Shown piece after piece: positions 370 through 19,161 of a stretch of DNA of 64,000 nt (position 1 is the stretch's first letter; each line of letters opens with the position of its first letter). Position numbers and translations under genes: made by a program. The DNA is from a virus, in the IMG/VR virus record IMGVR_UViG_3300020185_004577, positions 19,145-83,144 of that record, one strand, 5' to 3'. Below the pieces are notes generated by a model. It was not told the origin of the DNA. It made no database searches and worked only from the letters and a program-made list of their open reading frames with translations.

Positions 370-1434
370 TTATTTATTTAAATTTATTTTTTTTTTTGTT
401 TTGTAAAACTGTTTTTGCTCTAACAAATGTAAACATTCTTCTGGGACTATGTACTTCAGTTTGTCAATCCCATTTTCCTCTCTTAAAATTTGCCTTACCT
501 TAGAAGAGGATATATTTGTCTCTAGCAATCCTTCTATCTTTTTTATATTTTTGTTGATAGACTCAAATCTAACAACTTTATTTATATCATTCATATGAGC
601 ACCACCTCTTTCATAGTAAAATATAGGAAAATTATCTTCTATGTATTGTGAAGACTTTAAATTACCTATATCATACAAGTAATCTGCGCCCATAATTAAA
701 GAAAATTTGTAATCTTTATATTTTGCACTTATCTTTAGTAGAGATTCAGCAACAGAATTATTTTCATCGTTTTTATAATCCAATTTTGCTAATTTAAAAT
801 AAGGATTATCAAGTATAGCATTTTTCAAAAGTAAAATTCTACTTTTTAAACTTAACAACTCTTCACTCTTGTGATTCAAGTCATATCCTTCGTCAGAAAA
901 TAAAAACCAAACTTCATCAAAGTTATAACTATTGACAACTGTATTTGCAACAATTAAATGAGCATTATGTACTGGGTTAAATGAACCTATAAATAGACCT
1001 ATATTAGATGTTTTTTTGCTATTTTTATTACTTAAGCCCTTTATCATTACTATGTCCCTTTCTAGTTGCTGCAATATTTTAGCCTTTTTTTGCTTTAAAT
1101 CCCTTATGGAATAAGATGCTTTATTTGAAACTAATTTGCTTACTAGAAATTTAGAATTTATATTGTTAAATTTCTCAATATACTTTTTGTTAGACTCATA
1201 TAATTCATCATGCTTTTTAATTGAACTTATTATCGTAGCATGGTCTCTTCCTCCCAAAATGTTTCCAATATCACGCAAGCTAACTTTAAAGTTAGACTTT
1301 ATTATAACTGCAAAAACTCTTCTAGCATCAGCATAATCTGGCTTTCTGCTTTTTGAAATAACATCCTCTTTGGAAAGCCCAGTTTCTTTTGCAATTATGG
1401 AAAATAATAAATTTTTCTCTTTATTTGTAAGCAT
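370..1434 (-). CDS. Fusion of DnaA C-terminal (domain IV) HTH and nicotinate/nicotinamide mononucleotide adenylyltransferase (NadD-like)
   Basis: N-term SKSRKPDYADARRV...SLRDIGNILGGRDHATII resembles Bac_DnaA_C. C-term GSFNPVHNAH (HxxH), IMGADYL and ISSSKVR match NadD. Confidence 0.85.
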   Translation of the reverse strand: MLTNKEKNLLFSIIAKETGLSKEDVISKSRKPDYADARRVFAVIIKSNFKVSLRDIGNILGGRDHATIISSIKKHDELYESNKKYIEKFNNINSKFLVSKLVSNKASYSIRDLKQKKAKILQQLERDIVMIKGLSNKNSKKTSNIGLFIGSFNPVHNAHLIVANTVVNSYNFDEVWFLFSDEGYDLNHKSEELLSLKSRILLLKNAILDNPYFKLAKLDYKNDENNSVAESLLKISAKYKDYKFSLIMGADYLYDIGNLKSSQYIEDNFPIFYYERGGAHMNDINKVVRFESINKNIKKIEGLLETNISSSKVRQILREENGIDKLKYIVPEECLHLLEQKQFYKTKKKINLNK

Positions 1435-19130: not shown

Positions 19131-19161
19131 CAAATATAGTAATAGTAATTTCTTTACCAAA
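19131..19161 (-). promoter_or_regulatory. Bacteroidota-type promoter upstream of nrdB
   Basis: TTTG-N19-TATATTTG. Confidence 0.72.

Follow-up and report, generated by a model that had tools for sequence, protein, structure and literature searches.

A DnaA domain IV helix-turn-helix fused to a NadD-like nucleotidyltransferase in a probable NAD+ operon of a marine phage

NadR, the enterobacterial repressor of nicotinamide adenine dinucleotide (NAD) metabolism, is also a nicotinamide mononucleotide (NMN) adenylyltransferase (NMNAT) and a ribosylnicotinamide kinase, and its enzyme domain doubles as a nucleotide sensor. In NrtR, the Nudix fold of an NAD-pathway enzyme serves as the effector domain of a DNA-binding regulator; this domain is often catalytically dead and its effector is ADP-ribose. 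BirA is an adenylate-forming biotin protein ligase and repressor with an N-terminal helix-turn-helix (HTH), and the reaction intermediate determines its DNA binding. Here we describe a phage gene, designated P0001, whose product joins a DnaA domain IV-type HTH to a domain derived from NadD. The gene is located on the minus strand, between 370 bp and 1434 bp, of a 64,000-nucleotide stretch of DNA (positions 19,145–83,144 of the IMG/VR virus record IMGVR_UViG_3300020185_004577), which as a whole is referred to as the window.

The fusion resembles NadR in having an N-terminal HTH and an NMNAT-type nucleotidyltransferase, and in being tied to NAD metabolism, a likeness that is functional and not homologous. 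It differs in that its HTH is that of DnaA domain IV, its transferase is derived from NadD and is not of the NadR/NadM type, it lacks a kinase and it is encoded by a phage; it also arose independently, as one clade inside NadD. Two lineages of the fusion family with an apparently dead enzyme (P0034 and P0035) parallel the dead Nudix domain of NrtR, although the folds are unrelated (Nudix and winged helix in NrtR, NadD and DnaA domain IV in the fusion). The catalytic fold and the pathway of BirA are likewise unrelated to those of the fusion. Compared to the NadD proteins of Bacillus subtilis (1KAM/1KAQ) and Bacillus anthracis (3DV2), the fusion has the same fold and keeps GxFxPxHxxH, ISSxxR, R199, G249, D251 and R276, whereas it scores below the equivalog cut-off, has a replaced pocket in the subclade that includes the window protein (the window subclade) and carries an extra 142-residue N-terminal extension with the putative DNA-binding domain. 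DnaA domain IV and the stand-alone viral DnaA_C proteins belong to the same Pfam family as the N-terminal domain and share, in part, its conserved basic loop and recognition helix. Unlike DnaA, the fusion has no domains I–III, has three changed base-contact positions and has an enzyme domain attached; unlike the fusion, stand-alone DnaA_C genes lie beside helicase, primase and methylase genes and not beside NAD genes.

Phages are also known to encode NAD+ reconstitution pathways (NARP). In NARP1, Adps and Namat rebuild NAD+ from ADP-ribose and nicotinamide with no need for an NMNAT, and Namat enzymes also make NMN from phosphoribosyl pyrophosphate (PRPP) (10.1101/2024.02.11.579819). The same preprint reported deletion of the NARP1 operon of phage FADO and found no phage with both NARP1 and NARP2, its search for Nmnat having used just the KVP40 sequence; neither pathway is described as including a DNA-binding domain (10.1101/2024.02.11.579819). 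The phage NadR-like protein of NARP3 is described as an enzyme that works with a transporter and not as a DNA binder (PMC13464706). The neighbours of the fusion gene match the Adps/Namat pair of NARP1, and the NMNAT-family fold encoded by the third gene is reminiscent of NARP2, with its pair of Nampt and Nmnat.

The fusion gene and its rarity

P0001 is a single unbroken open reading frame (ORF) of 354 codons with an ATG start and no internal stop codons. The gene and its parts are located as follows.

370–1434 bp, minus strand: fusion gene P0001, 354 amino acids, comprising a DnaA domain IV HTH, a long helix and a NadD-like domain (ORF, Pfam, NCBIfam, AlphaFold2)
1141–1434 bp, minus strand: DnaA domain IV-type helix-turn-helix, amino acids 1–98 (Pfam, phmmer to 1J1V, family columns)
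1009–1140 bp, minus strand: basic connector, amino acids 99–142 (composition, AlphaFold2)
373–1008 bp, minus strand: NadD-derived nucleotidyltransferase domain, amino acids 143–354 (Pfam, NCBIfam, Foldseek, column comparison)

The original prediction, made from the sequence alone, was that a DnaA C-terminal signature is joined here to a NadD domain with HxxH and ISSS motifs, and this was borne out. The signature SLRDIGNILGGRDHATII is encoded at amino acids 52–69 (1228–1281 bp), HNAH at amino acids 156–159 (958–969 bp) and ISSS at amino acids 308–311 (502–513 bp), within the ISSSKVR of amino acids 308–314. Pfam analysis placed both domains in the one ORF: Bac_DnaA_C (PF08299) at amino acids 12–74, with 59.7 bits (cut-off 31.5; E = 2.9e-16) over 63 of the 69 profile positions, and CTP_transf_like at amino acids 147–315, with 51.1 bits (cut-off 21). 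A six-frame search gave a Bac_DnaA_C match of 60.2 bits at the same gene. The NadD models of NCBIfam spanned amino acids 140–346, the best being TIGR00482 with 99.7 bits, which is below its equivalog cut-off of 112.45, and the DnaA models matched amino acids 5–99 with just their last ~85 positions. Neither Pfam nor NCBIfam detected a kinase domain or DnaA domains I–III, including the AAA+ domain III, in the fusion, the remainder of which is NadD-like.

An AlphaFold2 model, built from an alignment of 95 sequences (mean predicted local distance difference test score 88.4), predicted a helical N-terminal domain (amino acids 4–98), one uninterrupted basic helix of 37 residues (amino acids 100–136) and a Rossmann-type domain (amino acids 144–340). 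The coiled linker of the original prediction thus corresponds to one long helix in the model. The connector (amino acids 99–142) contains 12 Lys and Arg residues versus three Asp and Glu residues. Foldseek comparison of the predicted C-terminal domain with NadD crystal structures gave target template modelling (TM) scores of 0.8–0.88.

A merging of two genes by sequencing or assembly error is excluded as the origin of this ORF. A word-indexed search of 5.8 billion proteins returned ~25 clusters (90% identity) from five data sources (JGI, ENA, Tara, NCBI and Logan), of 341–365 amino acids and 38–99% identical, each with both Pfam domains in one protein and with the same uninterrupted ORF; the length and character of the connector were also conserved in the family alignment. 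Contigs from an estuary run of another study (X4) tiled 409–2266 bp and crossed both domain junctions with no indels, so that the single ORF is upheld by clusters and independent contigs alike. Contigs from a sediment run of a further marine study (X6) covered 479–1027 bp and 1254–1825 bp, again with no indels, the junctions not being bridged by these. The stretch was detected in marine metagenomes from 13 studies.

The fusion architecture is uncharacterised and rare, and was found in uncultured marine phages only. When 1.84 billion representatives (50% identity) were searched exhaustively with phmmer, there were five matches below 1e-30, four of which were full-length (P0017, P0033, P0034 and P0035); the matches beyond these five were ordinary NadD proteins of ~190 amino acids or proteins of ~120 amino acids with DnaA_C only. 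No full-length match was present in GTDB species genomes or in 50,697 INPHARED phage records, PHROGs contained no match to the fusion protein, and the ESM Atlas, queried with the whole protein, returned no usable match. The sole other fusion in IMG/VR was that of locus L002 (86% identity), and a metagenome scan added L082 as the only further locus among the matches listed. The source databases label the fusion proteins as plain nicotinate-nucleotide adenylyltransferase, and no description of a DnaA domain IV and NadD architecture was found in full-text literature searches. By these searches, the architecture is neither common nor already characterised.

The fifth phmmer match, P0020, was an odd protein of 386 amino acids from contigs of at most 1.9 kb, with an aminotransferase-family N-terminal part and a NadD-like part 79–88% identical to that of the window protein. 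It was set aside as uninterpretable and may be either a chimeric assembly or a second architecture. Additionally, four metagenome-assembled genomes of Dehalococcoidia (L174, L179, L180 and L188) and three metagenome contigs (L084, L094 and L097) have a DnaA C-terminal match 0.7–1.9 kb ahead of nadD in the same orientation. In the two of these loci with ORFs listed (L179, 4959–8603 bp, and L094, 101–2752 bp), a full-length dnaA is followed by one other gene and then by nadD. This proximity of dnaA and nadD was rejected as a split form of the fusion because the genes are separate and full-length, with another gene between them.

DNA-binding and enzyme domains across the family

New here is that the HTH is the best-conserved and most constrained part of the fusion family, and that the enzyme domain drifts among subclades. 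Mean pairwise identity was highest in the HTH, at 64%, compared with 51% in the NadD part and 45% in the connector; relative to the six most distant members of the alignment, the HTH showed 55% identity and the NadD part 37%. Residues S27, R30, K31, D36–R38, G57, G61–R63, H65 and T67 were invariant in a 14-sequence family alignment (A1). The N-terminal domain aligned by phmmer to domain IV of Escherichia coli DnaA (1J1V) with E = 2.1e-7. Of the E. coli residues, R399, R407, K415, D433, H434 and T436 were kept (R30, R38, K46, D64, H65 and T67 respectively), whereas P423, T435 and H439 were changed to R54, A66 and S70 in the window protein. Across the family the P423 equivalent was variable, that of T435 was Ala or Ser and that of H439 was Ser or Asn. 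In E. coli DnaA, these residues act in DnaA-box recognition, P423, T435 and H439 by making base-specific contacts. The suggestion that the protein occupies the host oriC is without support because these three base-contacting positions differ.

The closest look-alikes of the N-terminal domain were stand-alone viral DnaA_C proteins of 100–220 amino acids. In the sampled contigs these were encoded near DnaB/SNF2 helicases, a primase-like gene, homing endonucleases and C5/N6 methyltransferases. A C5/N6 DNA methyltransferase gene was repeatedly located one to two genes away (L014, 5953–8079 bp; L018, 2569–5633 bp; L016, 5878–9724 bp), and a C5 methyltransferase gene is likewise located directly downstream of the fusion gene.

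The enzyme domain was compared column by column with 70 stand-alone NadD sequences. The ATP-side and catalytic residues (G150, F152, P154, H156, H159, R199, G249, D251, R276, S309, S310 and R314) were kept in 12 of the 12 members of the window subclade, and S309–S311 are all intact in the window protein. The residues of the pyridine-nucleotide pocket were replaced. Leu259 (11/12 members) is found where 69 of the 70 stand-alone sequences have Trp, N-N-S-V is in place of the P-S-Y-T loop, the prolines of PP-x-K before the conserved Lys are replaced by Asp181 and Tyr184, and a conserved Glu of NadD is Asp or Asn. These replacements were themselves conserved within the subclade (D181 in 12/12; Y184, V228, S231 and L259 in 11/12), and every one of these pocket residues was kept in the canonical sister subclade (P0021–26 and P0033). 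In E. coli NadD, H45 and W117 stack on the pyridine ring of nicotinic acid mononucleotide (NaMN) or NMN, and Y118 hydrogen-bonds the carboxyl or amide group (PMC8035330).

The prediction of an NMN/NaMN adenylyltransferase therefore stands for the fold and for the ATP side, where HxxH and ISSS are present, and does not stand for the pyridine side, where the stacking Trp, the PSYT loop and PP-x-K are replaced, or for the TIGR00482 score. Both HxxH and ISSS belong to the ATP side and occur throughout the superfamily, and they are not pyridine-specific. As the window subclade keeps the ATP motifs and has its pyridine-nucleotide pocket replaced, the label is not secure, and with the pocket remodelled it would be unsafe to take NMN or NaMN as the acceptor. 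The retained residues suggest that the window protein may still be capable of catalysis. A ligand without a nicotinamide ring, such as ADP-ribose, ADP-ribose pyrophosphate (ADPR-PP) or ribose 5-phosphate, may be an attractive, purely inferential alternative.

When a quick maximum-likelihood tree was built for the NadD domain, the fusion proteins all fell into one clade (Shimodaira–Hasegawa-like approximate likelihood-ratio test support of 92), which argues for a single fusion event, with a canonical enzyme. The window subclade is nested in this clade, behind its longest internal branch (0.54). After the fusion, the enzyme module appears to have drifted and the DNA-binding module to have been held constant. 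In P0034/P0192, an eight-member cluster with contigs of up to 40 kb, Asp stands in place of each His of HxxH, and the GxD and SST motifs are lost; P0035 has lost its catalytic motifs similarly. Judging by these motifs, both lineages are catalytically dead. The HTH of P0034 keeps its contact residues except T52, T54 and N62; in P0035 approximately half of the tabulated positions have drifted, but the S-R-K loop, D-A-R and the His of the recognition helix persist. A dead enzyme with a kept HTH would be the pattern expected of an enzyme fold that has become a sensor, as in the Nudix domain of NrtR.

Operon context and upstream DNA

The 83-kb record is estimated to be ~26% complete and carries genes for a ribonucleotide reductase, a DnaB-like helicase, a portal protein and a large terminase. 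The fusion gene is the third gene of a co-oriented operon, after a PRS-like and a NAMPT-like gene, and the gene order is the same throughout L002 and, as far as the contig reaches, in L082. The other features of the region are as follows.

3019–3933 bp, minus strand: PRS-like gene, 304 amino acids, probably Adps (ADP-ribose diphosphokinase), by similarity to FADO fado_78
1496–3007 bp, minus strand: Namat/Nampt-family gene, 503 amino acids, nearer to NARP1 Namat than to NARP2 Nampt, by similarity to FADO fado_77 and phrog_448
2–361 bp, minus strand: 5′ part of a C5 DNA methyltransferase gene (phrog_116/363), starting 9 nucleotides past the fusion stop codon, in the same order in L002 and L082
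4014–4040 bp, minus strand: promoter-like element TTGTAAT-N16-CGTT, ~80 nucleotides upstream of the first ATG of the operon, in a 123-bp divergent intergenic region (3934–4056 bp)

Compared with fado_77 of Bacillus phage FADO, the NAMPT-like protein was 50% identical (481 bits); compared with the Nampt homologue of KVP40, which represents NARP2 Nampt, it was 37% identical (196 bits). The PRS-like protein showed 32% identity to fado_78 and 38% to homologues of phi92-type phages; against cellular PRS chains it scored only 30–50 bits, and it was below the NCBIfam PRS cut-offs. Because of these scores, the neighbours are best read as putative Adps and Namat rather than as Prs and Nampt. By sequence they form the gene pair that would mark NARP1, in which a PRS-like and a NAMPT-like gene of the phage clades are adjacent and co-oriented. 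The pair of NARP2, a KVP40-clade Nampt with a KVP40-type Nmnat, was not found as judged by bit scores, the transferase being NadD-type with no PHROG match. Operon context as backing for an NMNAT label is weakened by this, as the likely partners require no NMNAT, and because NARP1 makes NAD+ without one there is room for a non-NMNAT role of the fusion. No second NMNAT-family gene was present in the 83-kb record or in a 125-kb sister record.

Contigs from RNA libraries matched both the PRS-like and the Namat-like gene as well as the NadD part of the fusion; they are no proof of transcription because they are short and partly from relatives, and DNA carry-over is possible. The ribosome-binding site of the fusion gene would be weak or atypical, as the closest GGAG is 19–22 nucleotides upstream of its ATG. 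A 10-codon mini-ORF (ATG at 1496–1494 bp, TAA at 1466–1464 bp) overlaps the stop codon of the NAMPT-like gene and ends 29 nucleotides ahead of the fusion ATG.

The element TTGTAAT-N16-CGTT has three exact copies in the window (4014–4040 bp, 9253–9279 bp and 38822–38848 bp, all minus strand), each located in intergenic DNA on the coding strand. Allowing one mismatch gave seven matches versus 1.7 expected, a number that none of 100 shuffles reached, and L002 retains the copy that precedes the NAD operon. This element is probably a promoter class for a phage-encoded sigma factor. Apart from A/T-rich words, intergenic k-mer enrichment in the 83-kb record returned just TATAAATA, which is the T4 late-promoter consensus. 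Of the 31 copies of TATAAATA, 15 were in 14 intergenic regions, intergenic DNA making up ~7% of the record, and one copy (4049–4056 bp) abuts the start codon of the SNase gene.

DnaA boxes, which DnaA domain IV binds, were examined as a candidate target of the HTH. With up to one mismatch, TTATCCACA was observed 22 times in the window versus 21.9 expected, and the two boxes near the start of the operon (3880 and 4164) differ at two to three positions in L002. Canonical DnaA boxes were thus neither enriched nor, at the operon, conserved, and were rejected as the operator, their occurrence being attributed to chance; consensus boxes at chance level say nothing on the true target of the fusion HTH. 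Clustered 9-mers were rejected as iterons, as they belong to two coding tandem repeats. A tandem repeat with a period of 183 bp and at least four copies (~63338–63900 bp) is located inside a plus-strand ORF that leaves the window end. Another is a 15-bp repeat of ~8 copies with the core CACCACAAGCTGCTG, located outside the window (G000:C1:3842-3957) inside a 165-codon minus-strand ORF, where it probably encodes a 5-residue peptide repeat.

Possible functions of the fusion

We favour, with a probability of roughly 0.4, the reading that the fusion is a sequence-specific, ligand-responsive DNA-binding protein with the logic of NadR, NrtR and BirA, encoded by the last metabolic gene of a phage NAD+ reconstitution operon. 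This reading is favoured because DNA binding would be the constant element of the family and the enzyme fold behaves like an effector or sensor. The N-terminal HTH would bind double-stranded DNA via its basic loop (S-R-K) and recognition helix (G-G-R-D-H-A-T), and the long basic helix would carry the NadD-like domain, which would bind ATP as well as a nucleotide from the NAD/ADP-ribose family, and in which AMP transfer may have been retained. The ligand state of this domain would modulate DNA binding, or act where the protein is bound. The NAD/ATP status of the cell would thereby be coupled to transcription of phage genes, for which the NAD operon is an obvious but unproven candidate. What we infer in this proposal is that the protein binds DNA at all, as well as its ligand, its target site and the outcome for regulation. 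The idea of a DNA binder with a nucleotide-sensing module, as originally put forward, gains support from the HTH being the most conserved part and from the two lineages that keep it with their NadD motifs destroyed. Also in its favour are the stand-alone viral relatives of the N-terminal domain, which are encoded in modules of DNA metabolism, and the replaced pyridine pocket of the window subclade.

Several observations weigh against this reading. None of the 12 members of the window subclade has lost an ATP-side or catalytic motif residue, which would fit an active enzyme as well as a sensor, and an extra regulator is not required because the operon has a phage-specific promoter shared with two other genes. 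No operator was identified by footprinting, k-mer enrichment or repeat scans. Footprinting of 3934–4056 bp was uninformative because only the window and L002 reach this region, where they are 96% identical, and an inverted repeat in the 5′ leader of the operon (AATAGC-N12-GCTATT) is short and weakened in L002. Finally, the catalytically dead lineages, whose genomic context would bear on the question, were absent from IMG/VR.

A doubtful but plausible alternative is that the fusion is a working adenylyltransferase, forming NAD+ from ATP and the NMN that Namat enzymes can make from PRPP, with the HTH merely as an anchor on phage or host DNA. With the pool being drained by a NADase defence of the host, NAD+ would then be made next to its consumers on the DNA, for example an NAD-dependent ligase. 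Eukaryotic NMNAT1, which is recruited to chromatin and feeds PARP1, offers a precedent. The catalytic and ATP motifs, intact in 12/12 members of the window subclade, the wholly intact pocket of the canonical subclade and the arrangement of the gene for co-transcription with the NAD genes all agree with such an enzyme, as, weakly, do the RNA-library contigs. However, the stacking Trp and the PSYT loop that would bind the pyridine nucleotide are replaced in the window subclade, a pure tether leaves unexplained why two lineages lost catalysis yet keep the HTH, and no NAD-dependent ligase gene was present in the 83-kb record, which represents only ~26% of the genome. The selective loss of the pyridine contacts, with the AMP side kept and the replacements conserved in the subclade, would instead fit a new acceptor: ribose 5-phosphate could be adenylylated to ADP-ribose for the neighbouring Adps, or ADP-ribose or ADPR-PP could be bound as an effector. 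The adjacent Adps/Namat-like pair, which would use ADP-ribose, suits this. We nevertheless consider it quite unlikely, as it is drawn from residue patterns alone, the conservation of the replacements is weak evidence because the subclade is shallow (61–99% identity), and we know of no NadD-family enzyme that forms ADP-ribose from ribose 5-phosphate.

A pocket without a nicotinamide site could also serve a defence-sensing switch, in that it would bind or make ADP-ribose or ADPR-PP, the products of host NADase immunity, and the HTH would switch phage genes, either the NAD-rebuilding operon or replication from a phage origin. The fusion would then be a phage transcription or replication factor that reads whether a NAD-depleting defence of the host has fired; this is an unlikely but consequential possibility. 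Takeover of the host, in which the DnaA domain IV would compete with host DnaA at its boxes in oriC and DnaA-regulated promoters and stop host replication, the NadD-like domain having an unrelated function, is improbable. The domain is a true DnaA domain IV homologue with a conserved minor-groove Arg and recognition-helix D-H pair, and its high conservation would suit a conserved host target, but P423, T435 and H439 have changed counterparts, its closest relatives are stand-alone proteins of viruses and not cellular DnaA, and the phage has consensus boxes at about the frequency expected by chance.

NAD+ depletion is a major anti-phage strategy of bacteria, and NARP1–3 have only recently been described, as sets of enzymes. 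The locus described here indicates that NARP1-like pairs can come with an NMNAT-family gene, which the original NARP survey could not see because a KVP40-type Nmnat was its sole query. If the favoured reading of a ligand-responsive DNA binder is correct, such an operon would include a DNA-binding protein, hinting for the first time that phages control or localise their NAD+ counter-defence, and the protein would represent an independent reinvention of the NadR/NrtR principle, built from the origin-binding domain of DnaA. With its canonical enzymes, remodelled pockets and dead enzymes, the family provides a natural series for how an enzyme becomes a sensor.

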